Shown here: piece after piece, positions 3,860 to 60,630 of the stretch | Layout of the letters: each line of letters starts with the position of its first letter | How positions within the stretch are numbered: the stretch's first letter is position 1 | From: Eledone cirrhosa | Lineage: Eukaryota | NCBI GenBank assembly: GCA_964016885.1 | Contig: OZ024751.1 | Span: forward strand, 44,206,001 to 44,270,000 | Length of the DNA: 64,000 nt | Direction of reading: 5' to 3' | The notes under the pieces: model-generated | What the model saw: the letters and a program-made list of their open reading frames with translations, nothing else | The model's database searches: none | What the model was told of the DNA's origin: nothing | Position numbers and translations under genes: made by a program

Positions 3860-4883
3860 AACAACTAAGACAACAAAGACAACAACATATATAATAAGAA
3901 CAAGAGTTACAACAACAACAACAACAACTATTAAGATGGCGGAACATACAATAAGAACAACAATAATAACAACAACAACAAAGACAACAACATATACAAT
4001 AAGAACAAGAATTACAACAACAACAAGAACTACTACTATTAAGATGGCGGAACACACAATAAGAACAACAATAATAACAACAACAACAAAGACAACAACA
4101 TATACAATAAGAACAAGAATTACAACAACAACAACAACAACTATTAAGATGGCGGAACATACAATAAGAACAACAATAATAACAACAACAACAAAAACAA
4201 CAACATATACAATAAAAACAAGAATTACAACAACAACAACAACTATTAAGATGGCGGAACATACAATAAGAACAACAATAATAACAACAACAACAAATAC
4301 AACAACATATACAATAAGAACAAGAATTACAACAACAACAACAACAACAACAACTATTAAGATGGCGGAACATACAATAAGAACAACAATAATAACAACA
4401 ACAACAAATACAACAACATATACAATAAGAACAATAATTACAACAACAACAACAACAACAACAACTACTATTAAGATGGCGGAACATACAATAAGAACAA
4501 CAATAATAACAACAACAACAAATACAACAACATATACAATAAGAACAAGAATTACAACAACAACAACAACAACAACAACTATTAAGATGGCGGAACATAC
4601 AATAAGAACAACAATAATAACAACAACAACAAATACAACAACATATACAATAAGAACAATAATTACAACAACAACAACAACAACAACAACTACTATTAAG
4701 ATGGCGGAACATACAATAAGAACAACAATAATAACAACAACAACAAATACAACGACATATACAATAAAAACAAGAATTACAACAACAACAACAACTATTA
4801 AGATGGCGGAACACACAATAAGAACAACAATAACAACAACAACAACAACAAATACAACAACATATACAATAAGAACAAGAATT

Positions 4884-4917
<34 letters not shown>

Positions 4918-4985
4918 CTATTAAGATGGCGGAACATACAATAAGAACAACAACAATAATAACAACAACAACGACAACATATACA
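3860..4985. repeat. About 105-120-bp (ACA)n-based minisatellite, about 10 units
   Basis: Each unit carries ATTAAGATGGCGGAACAYACAATAAGAAC. Confidence 0.92.
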
Positions 4986-5223
4986 AAAGGAACAACAATA
5001 ATAGCAACAGCAACAACATCAGCAACAACAACAACAGGTACAATAGCAACTAGAATAACAACAACAACAATATCGAAGATGTGGAAAGAATCCCAAAGAC
5101 AAATAATAATAATAATATTAATAATAATAATAATATTAATATTTTATTGAAAAATATCACAAAAAAAAATAAAGACACGGAATTATATTAAGAAAGGGAA
5201 AATAAAATACGTATTTATAATGA

Positions 5224-11348: not shown

Positions 11349-11519
11349 CACACACACATACATACATACACCAAATACACACAACAATAACAACAATAGC
11401 AACAATAGCGGGTCAGTAAAGCTCATAATTCTTGACATTGGAATGAGTGCAATGTGTGTGTGTATGTATGTATGTATGTATGTATGTATGTATGTATGTA
11501 TGTATGTATATACATACAT

Positions 11520-14072
11520 AAAAATGTGAAGAGGACATTGGAAGAAGAGATGCAGGCTGCAGATCTTGGTGAGGATTGGCCGACCCTTAAAAAGTCGGTT
11601 TATGATGTAGGCAGACGTGTTCTGGGATTGGTGCAGAGAAAACATCAGGACTGGTTTAATGAGAAAGATGTGCATATAGATGACTTGTTGGCTGATAGGA
11701 GGCGCGCTCTGTCACGCTACTTGACGGCAAGACCACAGGAGAGGAATACGTTGCATGAGGAGCTCAGGGATGTAAAATCACGTGTTAGGCGGAGTCTTTC
11801 TCAGATGAAGGATCAGTGGTGGAGTGAGAAGGCTGGTGAGATACAAACTGCGTCTGATTGCAATAACACAAAGCTGTTGTACAGTCTCTTGCGTGAGGTT
11901 TATGGACCGTCTTCTTCTCTGGTGACACCGATTCGCAGCAGGGATGGCAAAGAACTTCTTCGTGACTCACAGGGAATTCTACGAAGGTGGCGGGAGCACT
12001 TTGATGATCTTTTGAATCAGCCGTCTGTCGTCAGTGAAGATTTCCTCAATCTCATTCCGGAAAGTCCTGTGAAAGTAGCTCTCGCAGAGCCTCCGACACT
12101 TGTGGAGGTTGCAGTGGCTATTTCGAAGCTGAACAGTGGAAGATCTCCAGGTATGGATGGCATACATGCTGAGCTCCTACAATATGGTGGTGAGAGACTC
12201 CTGCAACATCTTCACTCTCTGTTTGGAAGGATATGGGCTAATGAATCCGTGCCTGAGGACTGGAGAGATGCAGTAATGGTGGTCTTGTACAAGGGAAAGG
12301 GTAACAGGAATGATTGTGGGAACTACAGAGGTATATCATTGCTTTCTGTCGTGGGGAAAGTTTTATGTAGGGTGCTTCTGGACCGTCTGCTGACACACAT
12401 TGCAGATTGTGTCCTTCCTGAAAGTCAATCTGGTTTTCGTGTTGGACGCGGCACTACTGATATGATCTTCTCAGCTAGACAGCTCCAGGAGAAGTGCATT
12501 GAACAGGGCTTGGATCTGTATCAGGTTTTTGTCGATCTGACAAAGGCTTTCGATACTGTCAACGGAGATGCATTATGGAAGGTTCTCCAGAAACTTGGTT
12601 GCCCTGATAAGTTCCTTGCTTTAGTTAGGTCTTTCCATGACGACATGAAGGCTTGGGTTAATGTCGGAGGTAACATGTCGGAGCCTATCTCAGTAAAAAA
12701 TGGAGTGAAACAGGGGGATATTCCAGCACCGACCCTGTTTGCCATATACTTTGCAATGGTTTTCTGTATTGCATTCAGGAATTGCGGACATGGTGTTTAC
12801 ATCCGATATCGAACCTCAGGCAGCATATTTAACATCAGGCGCTTTGCTGCGAAGACAAAAGTATTTACATCAGTCATAAGAGACCTCTTGTATGCAGATG
12901 ATTGCGATCTTGTAGCGCACACAGAGAGTGATATGCAGCACATTTTGAATGTATTTTCTGACGCTTGCACTGCCCTGGGTTTGACTGTCAGTCTCAAGAA
13001 AACCGTCGTCATGTACCAACCTGCACCTGGTGGGCAGTACACTGAACCAAACATCTATGTGTATGGCAAACGACTTGGAGTGGTTGATCAGTTTGTCTAC
13101 CTGGGAAGCACTGTCAATCGATACGGCAACCTTGACAGTGAAATCTCACTTAGGATTAGGAAAGCAAGTGATGCTTTCGGAAAGCTAGAAAGGCGACTCT
13201 GGGGTCGGCGAGACATATGCAGGAGGACAAAGGTAAAGGTGTACAGGGCATGTGTACTCTCTTGTCTTCTTTATGCCTGCGAGACCTGGGTCACATATCG
13301 ACGCCACCTTAAGCAATTGGAGCGTTTCCATCAGATGTGTCTCAGACGGATACATGGCGTTCGCTGGAGGGACCACATCAGTGATGTCGAGATTTTGGAA
13401 AGCTCTATGTGTGACAGTATAGAAGCTCTTGTGCTTAAGCAGCGACTCCGTTGGAGTGGTCACCTTGCCAGGATGAAGGATTCTAGAATACCAAAACAAC
13501 TCTTCTATGGAGAGTTGGTTAAAGGAAAACGACCGCCACATAAACCAAAAAAGAGGTATAAGGATTCCTTGAAGGCCTCTCTGAAAGACGCTAACATCTC
13601 TGCTGATACATGGGAAAATATTGCTGCTGATCGTAATAAATGGAGAAAGACTGTATATGAGGGAAAAGTTGCCTTTGAGGCATCTCGAATCGCACACGAG
13701 AAAGTAAAGCGGGACGTGAGGAAGGGTATTGCTGTTGCACTTCCAGACGGCGAGGGTCCTCCTATGTTTCTGACATGCAGCGTCTGTGCGAGACTCTGCC
13801 TAAGCAAAGCTGGACTCGAAAGTCATCTTCGCAGTCATAAAGTAAGACCAGTGGTTGACTACCAGGCTGCTGTTGGAGATGCTACTCATCATGCTTGCCA
13901 AACATGTGGTAGAGAATGTAAATCAGCAGGAGGACTCAAGCGACATGCAAAAGTACACGAACTCCAACCACAGCCGACTATTCCCAGTAAATGTTTTGGT
14001 TGCCGACTCTGTGCAAGACATTTTGGATCATTGGCTGGGCTAAAAAGCCACATTCGATCGCAGCACTGTTAG
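11520..14072 (+). CDS. RTE-clade (BovB-like) LINE reverse transcriptase ORF, 5'-truncated (no APE domain), with three C-terminal C2H2 zinc fingers
   Basis: ORF 11454..14072; the first ~22 codons are microsatellite. Non-LTR RT motifs: GKGNRNDCGNYRGISLLSVVGK, QSGFRVGRGTTDMIF, FVDLTKAFDTV, GVKQGD, LLYADD, YLGS, LRWSGH. C-terminal fingers: CSVC..HLRSH, CQTC..HAKVH, CRLC..HIRSQH. Confidence 0.93.
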   Translation, partial: KNVKRTLEEEMQAADLGEDWPTLKKSVYDVGRRVLGLVQRKHQDWFNEKDVHIDDLLADRRRALSRYLTARPQERNTLHEELRDVKSRVRRSLSQMKDQWWSEKAGEIQTASDCNNTKLLYSLLREVYGPSSSLVTPIRSRDGKELLRDSQGILRRWREHFDDLLNQPSVVSEDFLNLIPESPVKVALAEPPTLVEVAVAISKLNSGRSPGMDGIHAELLQYGGERLLQHLHSLFGRIWANESVPEDWRDAVMVVLYKGKGNRNDCGNYRGISLLSVVGKVLCRVLLDRLLTHIADCVLPESQSGFRVGRGTTDMIFSARQLQEKCIEQGLDLYQVFVDLTKAFDTVNGDALWKVLQKLGCPDKFLALVRSFHDDMKAWVNVGGNMSEPISVKNGVKQGDIPAPTLFAIYFAMVFCIAFRNCGHGVYIRYRTSGSIFNIRRFAAKTKVFTSVIRDLLYADDCDLVAHTESDMQHILNVFSDACTALGLTVSLKKTVVMYQPAPGGQYTEPNIYVYGKRLGVVDQFVYLGSTVNRYGNLDSEISLRIRKASDAFGKLERRLWGRRDICRRTKVKVYRACVLSCLLYACETWVTYRRHLKQLERFHQMCLRRIHGVRWRDHISDVEILESSMCDSIEALVLKQRLRWSGHLARMKDSRIPKQLFYGELVKGKRPPHKPKKRYKDSLKASLKDANISADTWENIAADRNKWRKTVYEGKVAFEASRIAHEKVKRDVRKGIAVALPDGEGPPMFLTCSVCARLCLSKAGLESHLRSHKVRPVVDYQAAVGDATHHACQTCGRECKSAGGLKRHAKVHELQPQPTIPSKCFGCRLCARHFGSLAGLKSHIRSQHC

Positions 14073-14230: not shown

Positions 14231-14445
14231 GAATGCCATGGTTGACGGAGGCTCGGCTCTGTAAGGTATAGTAATTTTTAACCGTTAAAACAATTGTAAA
14301 TTGTTTAAAACTTGAACCAAATTGTTGATAAAGACACCCTCCTCCTCGTGAGAGGGGTCTTTCTGTCCGTTATTTGGCCCTTCGGGGTTAAATAACCAGT
14401 TATTGGGGTTTTGTACCCCAAATTTCATTTTAAACAAAAAACAAC

Positions 14446-16540
14446 ATGGCTACGAAAAAGAAATTTCATACGTCACTCCCACTCATTCCGTCTTCTTCTT
14501 CCTCAATCATCACTACAGCAGAGAGAAGATTGTCTCTCTCCCTCCCTTCTTTAAATGTCTCTCTCTCCCTCCCTTCTCTTTCGCAAGTGACGAAAGAAAA
14601 GAAAAGTCTCGTGCAAAGCGTGCAAGGTTTCTCCACGACGACGACAACAGCGACGAAACAGGTGTGCGGGAAATACGAAAACCCAGTTCATTCGTCTGAC
14701 GTCAGGAATAATAGCAGTAGCAGCCGTAATAACAACAGCAACAGTGACAATGAAAACAACAGTAGCAGCCGCAACAGCATCACCAGCAGCATAAACAACA
14801 ACAGCATTAGCAGCAGCAACACCAACAACAACCACAGCAACAGCGGCGGAGGCAGTAGTCGTAGTACCTGCAGCAACAAAAGTACCAGCAGCTCTGACGA
14901 CAACAACAACAGCAGAGAAAAACCAATCTCATTTGCAGGTATTGCGAAAAACTTGGAAACAATCCTCATAACAAATGAGGAATTAGAGGAAGCGAAGAAG
15001 ATGGTGACAAAGAACGGACACCGAGCAATCTGCAAGGCAGCGAAACATTTTTTCGAAACCCAAGAGCACTGTACGGTCACGTACCGTACAGTAAGTACAA
15101 AATCCCGTAGGGTGGAAAGAGCCACAGAGGCCCAAATACAAAAAGCCTTGGGGTCTGTGTGGCAGCGGAAAACGCACATCACCCGAGGCAAAAAAATATG
15201 CCACCGTAGACGTACTTTTTGCCACACCCCAGGAGGCAAAGGCCCAATCAGTATTGACCCTAAGGAGCGAGGAAATGGTGTTGGTGCCCTCCTACTGTGG
15301 GCAAAAAATTGTGAGGGTCAAACTGACCCACGTCCCCCCCGGAATGACCCCTTCTTGGCTGGCCGCGTCTGTCCTCGTCGGAATCGAGGACAAAACAACT
15401 GTACTGCAAGTACAAAAAAAAGTAAGAGAAGATTGGGTCGGCTCCTCCATTGAGATGCTAATCCAAACCAACCAGGAGTGCATCGAAGCTATCCCGGATG
15501 TGATAGACTTCGATAACGGCACTCAACTGCCCATAAGTGTTGAGGGCAAACGCCCGAAATGCTTTCGCTGTGGATCGAAGACTCACCTCAGGGCCTTCTG
15601 CAACGAGAAGACCCTGAGAAAGGAGAAAACCCCCCTCCTTCCGAATCCGGCTCCACGGCTACCAGCAACAGGACAAGCGGCAACCAGGAACGATAGGCCC
15701 GTGGCACCCATACCCACTCCACGGAAATCAAAAACAGCAGCAGCAGTGGAAATACTAACAACAACAACAGCAATACCAAATGCAGCTGCAACAGAGACTC
15801 CAGTGCAAACATCACCAACAACAACAAGTGAAAGAGTGGAGCTGGTACCCCTCCCCGACCTTACAGAATCAGACATGGAGTGTGAGGTGGGAGAGAGATG
15901 GCAAAAGGTCGTAAGAAGGCACAAACGCAGAAGCAGCGCATCGTCGCCTTTGAAAAGGGAGGAAAGAAATGAGAAAAGGGTAAAGTCTACTGCAAAGAGA
16001 CCCACAGCAGCAACAACACCAACACCATCACCACCCACAATAGCGCCACCATCACCACCGGCGACAACCCCACCGCCAACAACACCTTCAACACCACCAC
16101 CACAAGCACCAACATCGCAAACACAACAACAAAACACACACACCCAGCAACAACGACAAGAAAATAGCAGAACCACACCCCACCCCCAGAAAAACAAATG
16201 CACGGCAATAAATACACACAACAAGAAACTAATGACTTACATAATTGAACACACAGACATTTCACAACAGGACTACATAATACCAGCACCAATCAAAACG
16301 CCAACTAACATAAGACTGCTAAAAATAGCACAGAAACAATACACAAACATTAAAACGAAATTCCCCAACGCAGTTGGTGATTTCAGGGACCTAGGAGGAA
16401 CCATCAATCGAAGAGTATACTCAGACATTCTCTTAGAAGAGCCGATGACCAGCCGAAGGGACGATTCAACGGTCCCTTCACCAGACGATCAAGTGAAAAG
16501 GGATGTAAAAACCATCCCTCCTCTACCAAAAGTACGGTAA
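14446..16540 (+). CDS. Tx1 ORF1 (gag-like nucleic-acid-binding protein), split by a one-base frameshift at the A7 run 15190-15196
   Basis: ORFs 14446..15453 and 15254..16540 join as ...HITRGKK/YATVDVLFATPQEAKAQSVLTLRSEEM if one A is removed. CX2CX4HX4C knuckle CFRCGSKTHLRAFC at 15560-15601. Confidence 0.82.
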
Positions 16541-16575
16541 GTGGTCTTTCCCATCTTTTCCACTCTATTTTAAAC

Positions 16576-19500
16576 ATGACCTCACTCAGAATAGGCAGCA
16601 TAAATGCGCGTGGCTTGGGGTCGTCATGGAAGCAGGGTCACCTGCTCAACGACCTCAGGTCACTAAACATAGATGTAGTGGCCATCAGCGAGACCAGAAT
16701 CTCCGAAGCACGGGCCTTCGCACCGATCTTCGGCGGCTGCGATGTGTACGCATCTCCCAGCCGTCCTGGATCGGGTGGAGGAGTTGCTGTGCTTTTTCGG
16801 AGAGGTTTGGATCTCGCCATACGGGCCATCTTCCTGGACCCAGAGGGTAAGCTGGTGGTGCTGGACGTGACCAGCGGAGACGGGCAAGCTTTCAGGCTAG
16901 TGGCCGTCTATGCCCCGACAGGAGCAGGGCGGCCTGATTTCTTCCGGCGTCTGGAGACCTTTCTTGGAACGTCCCGCTCTTTAGTGTTAGTGGGCGACTG
17001 GAACGGGATCTTAGATGCACGCTGGGACTGTGTGGGATTAGCGGATAGGGGTGGAGGGTGCAAGAGCCTCACCAACCTGCTCAGGCGTTTTGAACTGTCT
17101 GACAGGTACCGATTGGATTTCCCGAATGTGCCAATGTGGACTTGGACAAACCGCATAGGGTCATCCAGATCATATCTAGATAGAGTATTTTGTAGGGAAA
17201 TAGATAGGTCTAGCATAGGCTGTCCACAATTCAAGATAGTCAGCTACACGGACCACAAATTCGTGATCTGTGTGCTTAACTTAGATAGGCTTCATAGACG
17301 AGGACCCGGCTACTGGAAGCTAAACGCGTCCTTACCAGCGCGCAAGGCCTACAGAGACCGGATTAGCGAACTAGTTAAGCGGGCGTTGACGGGGGCCATC
17401 GTCAACAACAAGTGGTGGTTTGCTCTGAAAAGAGCGATTAGAATAGAATCGATTAGGTTTAGTAAGGCTTTAGCAATAGAGAAAAATAGAGCAGAGGGAG
17501 AACTAGTTAGAAAATTAGACGAGGCGCTTAGCAAAGGCATTGCGACCGACGTGCTTGCGGCGAAATTGGCCCTTGACCAATTCTTCAATGCAAAGCACGA
17601 AGGCTGCGTTGTCAGAGCTAGGGTGCGTGCTCTCAGACACGAGGGGACGAAAGCCGTTCAATGGGCCCGAGTGGCGGAGGCGCGTCGTGGCAACAAAGCC
17701 ACGATCCGGTCTTTGGTGGACCACGACGGGCGCATGCTACTCGATCCCGGGCAAATGTGTGAAGCTTTTCAGCGACACTTCGCTCAGCTGTTCGGGGGCA
17801 GCGGTGGGCCGGGTAGAGGGATGGACTTTAGTGTCTACCTCGACGGACTGCCGCGGCTCTCGGCCACTGAGGCGAAGTGTTGCGAAAAGCCGATAACAGC
17901 CGCTGAAGTAAGGGAGGCAATGACTGGCTGCACAAGGGGTAAATCGCCTGGTTTGGATGGTCTGCCCTATGAACTTTACGTACAGATGCCCGACTTGTTC
18001 GGAGGCCTCTTGGCGGACGTCTACTGCAACTGGCAACAGAACGGGAGAATTCCCAGTTCTGTGAGCCGAGGAGCGGTGGCACTGCTGAGAAAGGATCCGA
18101 ACAAGGGGGATAACATAGACAATTTCCGGCCCATAACTCTGCTAAACACAGAGTTTAAGATTTTGGCCAAGGTGCTAGCAAAGAGGTTGGCGCTTGTCGT
18201 TGGTGGTCTGGTGGGAGAGGCGCAGACATGCGCCATTCCCGACAGATCCATCCACGACAACCTCCACCTCATGCGATACATCGTAGAGAGGGTAGCTAGG
18301 GAACCTGGCACGGGTGGGTCCTTGATCAATTTAGATCAGTCGAAAGCTTTCGATAGGGTCGACCATCGTTACCTAGCGGCAGTCCTGAGGGCGGCTGGCT
18401 TTGGGCCCGTCTTCAGAGGCTGGATCGCTGCCATGCACAGCGACATCTGCTCTGTGGTGAGAGTGAACGGTCACCTGTCGGAACCGTTCAACATCATGCG
18501 CTCGGTCCGCCAAGGATGTCCCCTCTCGTCCCTCTTGTACGTATTGACGCTCGAGCCATTACTGCACAAACTGGAGACGTTGAGGGGAGTCCCGCGCGAA
18601 CTAGGATGCGGAAGATCCGTGTCAGCATATGCGGACGATGTCACCGTAGTGGTGTCGAACGCCAAACACATCGAGGCGATCGGCACTACACTAAGAGAAT
18701 ACGAAGCGGTGACAGGAGCAATGATCAACCAGGAAAAGTCAGTGGGCCTGCAGCTCGGCACCTGGAGAGGCAGGTCCATGCCGTCCAACAGCGTCGTCGG
18801 GCGCTGGACGGACGGACCGGTTAAATTGCTAGGGGTCTGGTTCGGTCCGGACCTCCAGACGGACAAAAACTGGGACGAGGTGACGAGCAGGGTGGCTTCT
18901 CTCACCCAGAAATGGGCGGAGAGGAAGCTATCCCTGAAAGGTCGAGCGGAGGTGGCTAACGCGTACATCGCGTCTGTCATCTGCTACCGCCTAACCGTCG
19001 TACCTTGTCCTAAGCCTCGCCTGACTGCGCTGGAGCGTTTACTCTTTCGCTTTTTGTGGAAGGGACGTGCTCCGATGGTCAGGCGGTCCATCTGTTGTCA
19101 ACACCCGCTACGTGGAGGGCTGGGCATGCCGTGGCTGATGATGCGCAGGCACGCGCTCAGGCTACGACATCTCCACCTCTTCCTCGACGGTGTTCAGGTG
19201 TGGTCGCCGTTTGCTAGACGCGTTTTTCCCCAGCTCGTTTCCTTGACGGAGCTGCAGTCCTGGATCAAGCGAAGACCGAGAGGGAGCGCCTGGAGACTGG
19301 AATGTCTTCAGGCGCTCACAGCCCTCGACCAATCGGGCAATGTGATCGGTGGAAACTCCACCTCGGCGTTCTATAGAGGATTAGTGGAGGGGAAGAGCGA
19401 CGACGTACTTGGGGAAACTCTAGGCGTCGACGAAAATCAACTAGCCAATCTCTTCGGAAGAACTTTCGGGCCAGGGCCTATGGACAACTTCCAGAAATCT

Positions 19501-19995
19501 CTGGCCTGGCAGTGCTACCGAGGAGCCTTGCCAGTTCGGGATAAACTCTACAGGCATGGAGGTGCCGTCAGCCGGGCATGTCCGAGATGCGCGCAGGGCG
19601 ACGAAACCGTCCTGCACGCACTCGTCCAGTGTCCGAAAATTGCTGACTTGTGGGTTTATGTCGAACACCTGCTGTCGCGTTTAGGACGGATCCAGCTATC
19701 ATCTGAGTCTATCGTGAGGATTGCCCCGCCCTCCTCCTTTAGCCGGGAAGGGCAGGCAGTTTTTATCTGTCTGGTGGCCATGGCGAAAGAGATAGTATGG
19801 TGGACACGTTTGAAAGGGCTGAAGACGAGCACTTACCTCTTCGGTGATGCTCTGATTGACTTTTTCAAATTTCATTTGAAAAGGAAAATCAGAGTAGAGA
19901 AGGAAGTGCTCTCTTCCCAGCATTTTGTTGAAAGATGGGTGAGAGAAGCAAGAATGGCCCGAGTGAATGGGCCGACTCTGAGTATATATCTGTAA
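16576..19995 (+). CDS. Tx1/L1 ORF2: apurinic-type endonuclease, reverse transcriptase and C-terminal CCHC (zf-RVT-like) domain
   Basis: 1139 aa, uninterrupted. APE motifs SINARGL, ISET, VYAP, GDWN, YLDR, TDH. RT motifs KSPGLDG, FRPITLLN, LDQSKAFDRV, VRQGCPLS, AYADD. C-terminal CPRC..ETVLHALVQC. Confidence 0.96.
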   Translation: MTSLRIGSINARGLGSSWKQGHLLNDLRSLNIDVVAISETRISEARAFAPIFGGCDVYASPSRPGSGGGVAVLFRRGLDLAIRAIFLDPEGKLVVLDVTSGDGQAFRLVAVYAPTGAGRPDFFRRLETFLGTSRSLVLVGDWNGILDARWDCVGLADRGGGCKSLTNLLRRFELSDRYRLDFPNVPMWTWTNRIGSSRSYLDRVFCREIDRSSIGCPQFKIVSYTDHKFVICVLNLDRLHRRGPGYWKLNASLPARKAYRDRISELVKRALTGAIVNNKWWFALKRAIRIESIRFSKALAIEKNRAEGELVRKLDEALSKGIATDVLAAKLALDQFFNAKHEGCVVRARVRALRHEGTKAVQWARVAEARRGNKATIRSLVDHDGRMLLDPGQMCEAFQRHFAQLFGGSGGPGRGMDFSVYLDGLPRLSATEAKCCEKPITAAEVREAMTGCTRGKSPGLDGLPYELYVQMPDLFGGLLADVYCNWQQNGRIPSSVSRGAVALLRKDPNKGDNIDNFRPITLLNTEFKILAKVLAKRLALVVGGLVGEAQTCAIPDRSIHDNLHLMRYIVERVAREPGTGGSLINLDQSKAFDRVDHRYLAAVLRAAGFGPVFRGWIAAMHSDICSVVRVNGHLSEPFNIMRSVRQGCPLSSLLYVLTLEPLLHKLETLRGVPRELGCGRSVSAYADDVTVVVSNAKHIEAIGTTLREYEAVTGAMINQEKSVGLQLGTWRGRSMPSNSVVGRWTDGPVKLLGVWFGPDLQTDKNWDEVTSRVASLTQKWAERKLSLKGRAEVANAYIASVICYRLTVVPCPKPRLTALERLLFRFLWKGRAPMVRRSICCQHPLRGGLGMPWLMMRRHALRLRHLHLFLDGVQVWSPFARRVFPQLVSLTELQSWIKRRPRGSAWRLECLQALTALDQSGNVIGGNSTSAFYRGLVEGKSDDVLGETLGVDENQLANLFGRTFGPGPMDNFQKSLAWQCYRGALPVRDKLYRHGGAVSRACPRCAQGDETVLHALVQCPKIADLWVYVEHLLSRLGRIQLSSESIVRIAPPSSFSREGQAVFICLVAMAKEIVWWTRLKGLKTSTYLFGDALIDFFKFHLKRKIRVEKEVLSSQHFVERWVREARMARVNGPTLSIYL

Positions 19996-21002: not shown

Positions 21003-21228
21003 TGAAGGCGTGTGGCTGAGTGGTTAGAGAATTGGATTCGCAATCGTAAGGTTGTGAGTTCGATTCCTGGACCAGGCGATGCGTTATGTCCTTGAGCAAG
21101 ACACTTTATTTCACGTTGCTCCTTCTACCTGGAGTTGCGACCGATAGATAGTATTAGCAATTGGAAAGACCAACGGAAACATTGTTCCCTCGGTCCGATT
21201 TGACGAAAGTCGATCGTTCCTAAAAAAA
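21003..21228 (+). mobile_element. tRNA-derived SINE (A box 21013-21023, B box 21056-21066, CORE-like segment, hairpin 3' tail)
   Basis: TGGCTGAGTGG ... GAGTTCGATTC ... CTTGAGCAAGACACTT; ends in an A run. Confidence 0.8.
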
Positions 21229-21251
21229 TATACGTATATACGTATATATAC

Positions 21252-21304: not shown

Positions 21305-21378
21305 TTGCCTTGTCTGACGAACGAATGCGGACGTTTCTTGTATTCCTCTTATTCGGGAAACCTCTGGTAATGAGGTAA
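21305..21378 (+). ncRNA. Type I hammerhead ribozyme motif (same family as 60361)
   Basis: Stem I TTGCCTTGT/ATGAGGTAA; CTGACGA 21314-21320; stem II CGAAT/ATTCG with an A-G closing mismatch; GAAA 21357-21360; stem III ACC-TCT-GGT; GUA triplet. Confidence 0.75.
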
Positions 21379-21401
21379 TTATATTGTATTTTTTATTATA
21401 C

Positions 21402-21463
<62 letters not shown>

Positions 21464-31583: not shown

Positions 31584-31619
<36 letters not shown>

Positions 31620-31622
<3 letters not shown>

Positions 31623-32254
31623 TCACCTTGTGGTCACCTTGCCAGGATGAAGGATTCTAGAATACCAAAACAACTCTTCTATGGAGAGTTGGTTAAAGGA
31701 AAACGACCGCCACATAAACCAAAAAAGAGGTATAAGGATTCCTTGAAGGCCTCTCTGAAAGACGCTAACATCTCTGCTGATACATGGGAAAATATTGCTG
31801 CTGATCGTAATAAATGGAGAAAGACTGTATATGAGGGAAAAGTTGCCTTTGAGGCATCTCGAATCGCACACGAGAAAGTAAAGCGGGACGTGAGGAAGGG
31901 TATTGCTGTTGCACTTCCAGACGGCGAGGGTCCTCCTATGTTTCTGACATGCAGCGTCTGTGCGAGACTCTGCCTAAGCAAAGCTGGACTCGAAAGTCAT
32001 CTTCGCAGTCATAAAGTAAGACCAGTGGTTGACTACCAGGCTGCTGTTGGAGATGCTACTCATCATGCTTGCCAAACATGTGGTAGAGAATGTAAATCAG
32101 CAGGAGGACTCAAGCGACATGCAAAAGTACACGAACTCCAACCACAGCCGACTATTCCCAGTAAATGTTTTGGTTGCCGACTCTGTGCAAGACATTTTGG
32201 ATCATTGGCTGGGCTAAAAAGCCACATTCGATCGCAGCACTGTTAGTTGCTATC

Positions 32255-41458: not shown

Positions 41459-42200
<742 letters not shown>

Positions 42201-59265: not shown

Positions 59266-59338
59266 TGCCGAAACCCGAGATTGAACCAGGGACCTTTAGA
59301 TCTTCAGTCTAACACTGTCCCAACTGAGCTATTTCGGC
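59266..59338 (-). tRNA. tRNA-Phe(GAA), probably a pseudogene or degenerate copy
   Basis: Reverse complement GCCGAAATAGCTCAGTTGGGACAGTGTTAGACTGAAGATCTAAAGGTCCCTGGTTCAATCTCGGGTTTCGGCA resembles metazoan tRNA-Phe. It has a D-stem C-C mismatch and a G-U at the top of the T-stem. A T7 run lies about 17 nt downstream (A run 59242-59248). Confidence 0.88.
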
Positions 59339-60233: not shown

Positions 60234-60360
60234 ATTTATCTTCAATTATATATATGTGTGCATGTATGTATTTCTGATTCTGTTGTACATGTATTTTTTC
60301 CGTTATTTTAATTCAGCCTCACTTTCATATGTAATAGATTTTAATTTCATATCTTATATC

Positions 60361-60456
60361 CATAACATAGATATTTTATCTGATGAACGAAATAGACGTT
60401 TCTGTTAGAATCGTCTAACTTCGTGAAACCTTGGGTAATGGAATAACTATATTGTG
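60361..60456 (+). ncRNA. Type I hammerhead ribozyme motif
   Basis: CTGATGA 60380-60386; stem II ACGAA/TTCGT plus TAGACG/CGTCTA; GAAA 60425-60428; stem III ACC-TTG-GGT; GUA cleavage triplet; extended stem I (60361-60379 with 60438-60456, 2 mismatches). Confidence 0.8.
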
Positions 60457-60536
60457 TTGTTTATTACATATAATTAAATAGCTCTGTATTATACATAGAG
60501 CCTTCTTCTTTCATTTACCTTTTCTACAGAAATACT

Positions 60537-60630
<94 letters not shown>

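Follow-up and report, generated by a model that had tools for sequence, protein, structure and literature searches.

Two hammerhead motifs in a 64-kb stretch of Eledone cirrhosa DNA (hereafter the window) are best read as the 3' ends, hammerhead included, of copies that lack their 5' part and any protein and belong to two sister families of Penelope-like retrotransposons (PLEs) of the Hydra clade, in whose intact elements the motif would work by the mechanism outlined below. We give this reading a probability of roughly 80%.

Two type I hammerhead motifs

The preliminary description of this DNA had proposed two homologous hammerhead motifs, and both were found on the + strand, aligning at 75% identity over 92 nt (blastn E 4e-10; copies 1 and 2, Table 1). 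Each copy has the type I order of CUGANGA, GAAA and UH core, and the cuts predicted earlier after 21369 and 60437 coincide by sequence with the H17 positions of GUA triplets in the standard hammerhead numbering. The second motif, formerly taken to begin at 60361, has a layout that begins at 60372. We scanned the window in both orientations with a generic descriptor of the type I layout, and it picked out exactly two sites, copies 1 and 2. The same descriptor gave on average 0.015 matches in 200 Markov-resampled windows, none of which contained two.

All eight helix I pairs form in copy 1, as they do in copy 2. Between the copies, two pairs are changed on both sides (C-G versus U-A), three are changed on one side to a wobble and none is broken, which agrees with the earlier observation that stem I stays paired with C-G replacing T-A. 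The stem of helix III had been described as kept under a varying loop; accordingly, its three pairs are present in both copies and the loop is UCU in copy 1 and UUG in copy 2. GTAAT words resembling 5' splice sites lie at 21367-21380 and 60435-60440, overlapping and following the cut sites; an intron is often present in PLE leaders.

An Rfam search of both motif stretches returned no hammerhead match. For 12 distant Hydra-type loci of like layout, too, no hammerhead match reached the Rfam gathering score, so that its models miss the hammerhead form of this clade. Among the 150 of 421 Rfam matches listed for the whole window was microsatellite-driven miRNA noise.

Table 1. Hammerhead motifs, leader hairpin and insertions in the window
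Feature	Position	Strand	Remark
Copy 1, type I hammerhead layout (family A)	21306-21377	+	by sequence
Copy 1 helix I	21306-21313 with 21370-21377	+	8 bp
Copy 1 core	CUGACGA 21314-21320; GAAA 21357-21360	+	
Copy 1 helix II domain	21321-21356	+	36 nt; A·G first pair
Copy 1 helix III		+	3 bp; predicted GUA cut site after A21369
Copy 1 private G>C	21346	+	breaks C-G pair in upper helix II; change shared by 0/15 family copies
Whole family-A insertion	21306-21405	+	5' truncation at the outer helix I end; flanked by (TA)n/(CA)n runs
Copy 2, type I hammerhead layout (family B)	60372-60445	+	by sequence
Copy 2 helix I	60372-60379 with 60438-60445	+	8 bp
Copy 2 core	CUGAUGA 60380-60386, plus GAAA	+	
Copy 2 helix II domain	60387-60424	+	38 nt; A-U first pair
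Copy 2 helix III		+	pseudo-palindromic; predicted GUA cut site after A60437
Copy 2 leader hairpin 1 (GCUC...GAGC)	60481-60506	+	the family's next AC lost here
Whole family-B insertion	60250-60540 (ends approximate)	+	last ~120 nt of 3' UTR, hammerhead, long 3' end

Families and parent element

We searched the 3.0-Gb assembly for relatives (family letters A-I are labels of this analysis). A pattern shared by the hammerhead families had 1,969 exact matches in the genome, versus none for the reversed control. For family A, that of copy 1, a first look gave 1,546 candidates, the best 40 scored being 95-98% identical; for family B, that of copy 2, it gave 1,961, with the best 40 scored at 86-94%. 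By arithmetic from the 1,969 exact matches, about 40 of the ~47,000 64-kb windows would be expected to hold two copies by chance. The window copies are members of separate high-copy families and not a special local pair.

Family copies are 5'-truncated, lie in dinucleotide repeats and often form head-to-head pairs; a dinucleotide repeat was present within 3 nt of the called break at 124 of 170 insertion ends. Copy 1 has a short 3' end, which stops 36 nt past the cut site and ~6 nt before the expected start of leader hairpin 1, and copy 2 a long one, which runs ~100 nt past the cut site into (CA)n. The 5' extent could be estimated roughly for 30 pattern-picked copies (~6 stopping at or near helix I, 11 reaching the locus edge), and so we claim no special 5' hot spot. 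The families thus display the Hydra-clade PLE traits of a pLTR with hammerhead, an inverted truncated copy, a tail at one end and insertion into (TA)n.

Head-to-head pairs taken from the assembly include an ORF. In an intact copy (L094), a 3' UTR is followed by the hammerhead, the cut site, a leader of 229 nt, the ORF, ~1.3 kb of 3' UTR and another hammerhead; its leader holds two bulged hairpins ahead of the RT-endonuclease ORF. Family C has a 685-aa open frame with RWK, DKT, YRDD, CxCX5C, CxxC and GIY-YIG-like motifs (RWK, DKT, the CxCX5C linker and CxxC at positions 44, 121, 562 and 665), and a CxH motif is found in the C-terminus of L093. Telomerases were the first structural matches of the family-C protein model (pLDDT 89.7), while no RT or GIY-YIG match was returned by Pfam for the linked protein P0001 and 39 relatives, and a PDB sequence search with the linked protein found no match. 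Family C is thus predicted to encode, in a single ORF, a telomerase-like RT, assigned by modelled fold, together with a GIY-YIG-like domain at the C-terminus, assigned by motif. In Craig et al. 2021 (PMC8557442), RWK, DKT, CxCX5C, CxxC and GIY-YIG-like motifs characterize the Hydra clade. Compared by eye over its first 44 residues, the linked ORF agrees with Hydra-1_Obim at 23. Judged by its motifs and by comparison with published proteins by eye, the linked element is a Hydra-clade PLE.

The families differ in how they connect to this protein. The endonuclease of family C gave 150 scored matches at 93-100%, several in frames of ~719 aa, and these matches together with the long open frames indicate that the family is young. 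Family A has the endonuclease C-terminus upstream in four loci (L056, L060, L069 and L078; 78-86% aa), and in L304 hammerhead, leader and ORF start follow in this order. In family B, protein remnants were found in two of 29 upstream-picked loci, as an RT remnant with stops (57%; L138) and an endonuclease remnant (L154), with no intact family-B ORF among them. Family B is older and is tied to the protein only through these two broken loci and sequence kinship.

Conservation of the fold

Changes between the two copies had previously been taken as good evidence of selection on the fold. In simulations, seven random substitutions left all eight helix I pairs intact in 0.13-3.3% of cases, depending on transition bias, and the pair by itself is modest evidence of selection (P about 0.001-0.03). 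The 5' strand of helix I from family B forms all eight pairs even with the 3' strand from family A, because G·U is tolerated; G·U intermediates make compensatory changes cheap.

Much stronger support for the fold than the pair alone provides comes from nine families and 92 distant loci. The preliminary description had named covariation among homologues as a check on its proposal, and this was borne out. In an alignment of 24 copies from several subfamilies, 89.5% of cells were paired, against 32-50% in slid controls, and four of the eight helix I pairs change on both sides. The covariation score and the number of cells with changes on both sides exceeded every one of 500 shuffles, and two of the five measures, the numbers of pairs changed on both sides and of pair types, were no better than shuffles (198 and 259 of 500), in controls that take no account of relatedness among copies. 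MAFFT shifts helix I of family E, which has an extra U-A pair, by one base and thereby lowers the 24-copy score; segment-anchored counting was used instead of MAFFT columns for helix I pairing in the nine families. With per-family majority states, 64 of 72 cells were paired, versus 5.5 of 8 in cross-family pairings. Families G and H carry unrelated helix II sequences around the same core, and the layout was intact in 15 of 30 loci picked by a tail motif, the others being truncated or mutated.

An alignment of 40 related proteins led to the 92 distant loci (metagenomes and contaminated bins), of which 69 showed the hammerhead layout. Fourteen contigs recorded under bacterial genomes or bins (L273-L286) contain Hydra-type PLEs, probably through host contamination. 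The first pair of helix II in 66 distinct distant hammerheads was U·U in 29, G-C in 25 and another in 12, and in none was it A·G. By contrast, among the 100 matches listed of the 1,969 in this genome, ~95 place a G against the first A of helix II; with U required there, a looser pattern had only 105 matches genome-wide. The helix II domain spans 36-39 nt in the present families, compared with 10-36 nt in the 66 distant relatives (one at 36, the others at most 31).

In 60 of the 66 distant hammerheads the loop left by helix III measures 0-2 nt, suggesting that this helix is built for a duplex of two hammerheads. In the window copies, a helix III hairpin is predicted at +0.4 kcal/mol and the self-duplex at -5.1 (copy 1) and -8.2 kcal/mol (copy 2). 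The hammerhead fold lies above the predicted minimum by 2.4 kcal/mol in copy 2 and by about 5 kcal/mol in copy 1.

Comparison of sequences across the lineage indicates that the fold is selected in its master elements, and to this extent the earlier claim of selection stands. It does not extend to the two loci of the window, as the differences between copies 1 and 2 were fixed in ancestral master elements and were not selected here.

Twin leader hairpins and insertion ends

Past the cut site, the families examined carry the motif GCUC-[stem-loop]-UN-GAGCAC (hairpin 1), with 11,106 exact matches versus 0 for the control. A second bulged hairpin (hairpin 2) sits 14-47 nt before the AUG that follows the leader. 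Hairpin 2 of this genome is ~70 nt long with a conserved interior (leaders of L288-L316), compared with a 12-22-nt form in distant relatives.

In the distant loci, a hairpin was the next feature after 57 of 87 hammerhead occurrences (background 0.5%); in the remaining 30, (TA)n came first in 11, the contig ended in 8 and 11 showed something else. In the 54 loci where 150 nt ahead of the ORF were available, GAGCRC boxes numbered two in 38, one in 10 and none in 6 (in-ORF control: 1/54), and two boxes were found in 28 of 44 leader clusters. The upper pairs of 42 distinct hairpin 1 sequences hold in 39, 32 and 30 (shuffle means 29.7, 21.0 and 18.6), values reached by at most one of 5,000 shuffles. 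The first upper pair of hairpin 2 holds in 31/31 and the second at the level of chance (13/31, shuffle mean 12.7).

Insertions end next to these hairpins. For 59 copies of family A, 29 ends lay 2-7 nt before hairpin 1, 28 lay 2-8 nt before hairpin 2 and two elsewhere. Family C (29 copies) ended before hairpin 1 in 10 cases and before hairpin 2 in 18 (2-8 nt), with one read-through, and all 10 ends of family G were 0-9 nt before hairpin 2. In the distant loci, the 8 of 20 compared copies that had a clean microsatellite junction all ended 0-6 nt before a hairpin; the other 12, mostly of diverged families, were left out. All break positions are blurred by a few bases, since the linkers resemble (TA)n. 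Only one end carried the tail in 23 of 30 head-to-head pairs (P=0.003 versus 0.5), and in the window copy 1 has the short end and copy 2 the long end including hairpin 1. While these end positions are observed, their cause is inferred: the hairpins probably mark two starts of reverse transcription.

It is possible, though we consider it unlikely, that the twin hairpins are instead promoter, endonuclease or translation signals and that ends fall nearby only through microhomology of AU-rich linkers with (TA)n. The linkers are indeed enriched for TATA/ATAT (20/32 and 16/31, versus shuffled means of 9.2 and 6.9), the invariant lower stem GCUC/GAGC could be read as sequence, hairpin 2 lies close to the AUG and its second upper pair gives no pairing signal. 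Against this stand the covarying upper pairs of hairpin 1 and the fixed position of ends, 0-9 nt from a hairpin even though the distance between hairpin and cut varies from 27 to 69 nt. Moreover, a pattern for read-through into hairpin 2 was matched by only 282 of the 11,106 hairpin-1 copies (exact pattern, hence a lower bound).

We regard it as an even bet that the hairpins are a clade-wide Hydra RNA signal, each bound by one RT-endonuclease subunit and setting the start in the UA-rich linker, and that the hammerhead with A·G and long helix II is an active new variant. Such a signal would resemble the template boundary of telomerase and would explain both the two ends and the one-sided tail.

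The twin-hairpin motif is visible by eye in three of six File S7 consensi of PMC8557442, with a variant in a fourth, and the word 'hairpin' had no match in the accessible main text of that paper. No description of it was found in the literature searched; subscription journals, Repbase notes and some supplements could hold one. We consider the twin hairpins to matter more than the hammerheads, and they can be tested in vitro, as there is a young family whose open frames are long and whose RNA signal is defined. PLEs are the closest retrotransposon relatives of telomerase, and the choice between two internal start sites is the question that such work would address.

Proposed mechanism and comparison with known systems

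In the intact element, the hammerhead likely cuts a tandem precursor RNA at GUA, and a unit of ~3.6 kb would owe its 5' end to this cut (the order is observed in L094, the cutting is inferred). Given a short, pseudo-palindromic helix III and a weak or mismatched first pair in helix II, cutting would probably proceed slowly and with help from another hammerhead or from the protein of the element. Analogous ribozymes that cleave weakly on their own would lead one to expect the same: minimal PLE hammerheads alone cleave weakly (Cervera & de la Peña 2014, PMC4209133), the hammerhead of PAc cleaves only with protein (PMC11167929), and axolotl Amex2, whose helix II opens with U·U, reaches 22% in an hour as a monomer and does better as a dimer (PMC7229834). 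As the copies examined contain sequence on both sides of the cut site, the RNA appears to be copied into DNA uncut or after re-ligation. One of the two leader hairpins is likely bound by the protein, which would nick (TA)n and prime on the UA-rich linker that adjoins this hairpin on its 5' side. Choice of start would then yield the short end (as in copy 1) or the long, tailed end (as in copy 2), and the inserted copies would decay.

The fold may, however, be kept without being needed for integration, serving another step (read-through release, translation, late RNA turnover) or travelling as a passenger; we hold this to be doubtful. Insertion by PAc in vitro was unaffected by hammerhead mutations, and no reads ended at the cut site (Frangieh et al. 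2024, PMC11167929). The copies examined here likewise span the cut site, and it is the most successful of the young families whose helix II starts with A·G. Against a mere passenger, the core is invariant across tail-picked families in which helix II is wholly replaced, and the layout recurs in 69 of the 92 loci picked by protein. Some selected function thus exists, and the alternative differs from the proposed mechanism only in the step served.

With PAc, a Poseidon element from Anolis, the elements described here share two internal RT starts downstream of the hammerhead that produce an optional tail, as well as AT-rich targets, an uncut RNA template and, as a prediction in PAc, a protein dimer (PMC11167929). 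PAc belongs to another clade, and the tail here is ~75 nt. Its starts lie in a single AC-rich stem-loop inside the ORF, whereas the probable starts here are on UA-rich linkers in the leader, each before a repeated conserved hairpin. The proposed pairing of linker and target is at odds with PAc, whose initiation site is not homologous to its target (PMC11167929).

Hydra-clade PLE hammerheads have been published, and the set of pLTR hammerheads includes an octopus family with another motif (PMC8557442 and its File S2). The present motifs resemble that set in the type I form at the 3' end, the pseudo-palindromic helix III, the (TA)n targets and the tolerance at the first pair of helix II, where U·U is common in File S2; the proteins share the RWK, DKT and CxCX5C motifs. 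The unit of ~3.6 kb differs from the published 'generally <3 kb', and four 12-13-nt core motifs of the present families were absent from the accessible supplement. Minimal PLE hammerheads (PMC4209133) are alike in their pLTR site, mostly solo truncated copies, close inverted pairs, compensatory changes at family level, larger helix II and palindromic helix III suited to dimers. In contrast to these, helix I here has 8-10 bp, helix III has three pairs and G10.1-C11.1 is not kept. The hammerheads add new members to a published kind. Two of their features are unusual, the long helix II and the A·G first pair, and these are useful for mapping the tolerance of the catalytic core.

The window copies as decaying insertions

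Metazoan non-LTR retrozymes also have type I hammerheads (PMC7229834 and bioRxiv 10.64898/2026.07.22.740005); they are short tandem repeats, and the present families are tied to a coding element. That the copies are small non-autonomous retrozymes moving through circles of 170-400 nt is very improbable: a type I hammerhead in dispersed animal repeats and one 183-nt tandem array of G-type leader (C2:169.70 Mb) would fit, but the window copies are single and non-tandem, short non-coding tandem units of 150-450 bp were not found for these families, and relatives reach 1.3-1.4 kb upstream into the RT-endonuclease ORF (families A and C). The array itself (G000:C2:169702714-169703503) consists of five 183-nt tandem units with the family-G leader and may be a retrozyme-like derivative of a Hydra element.

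Least probable of all is domestication, with the two window copies under selection as ribozymes where they lie, despite an intact core in both and a SINE-like element upstream of copy 1 from which Pol III read-through could exist: near-identical copies occur elsewhere by the thousands, an ORF scan of 8000-33000, on the side of copy 1, found no host gene among the long ORFs, and a change private to copy 1 breaks a stem pair (energy of helix II predicted at -5.7 kcal/mol, versus -8.6 kcal/mol for the family-A copy L060). In family B, 29 copies were picked by upstream sequence and 26 counted after three lacking the region were dropped; the core was changed at 14/281 positions and the flank at 41/543 (P=0.19), and the hammerhead core was intact in 13 of the 26. 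Family-B copies decay about neutrally, and individual copies are not obviously under selection.

The SINE is tRNA-like, with A/B-box-like motifs seen by eye (21003-21230, +), and lies just upstream of copy 1. The first T4 run 3' of it, at 21389, is due to a private G>T at 21391, immediately past the ribozyme; Pol III read-through could therefore span the whole hammerhead of copy 1.

Other elements in the window

Two further retroelements were recognized by eye on the + strand. A LINE-like element of L1/Tx1 type (14434-19995) has gag-like upstream frames and a 1204-aa open endonuclease-RT frame, and an RTE-like LINE (11436-14072) has an 878-aa frame ending in C2H2 fingers; a near-identical 3' fragment of the latter lies 18 kb downstream (~31600-32246, +). 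A tandem array at 3870-5018 consists of ~10 CAA-rich copies of a 111-114-nt unit. ARAGORN called a tRNA-Phe(GAA) at 59266-59338 (-), to which Rfam assigned 55.9 bits as a tRNA. A long hairpin at 41623-41741 arises from a small repeat, which is also present within (TA)n at three other loci (L038, L092 and L138) and may be the end of another TA-targeting element.
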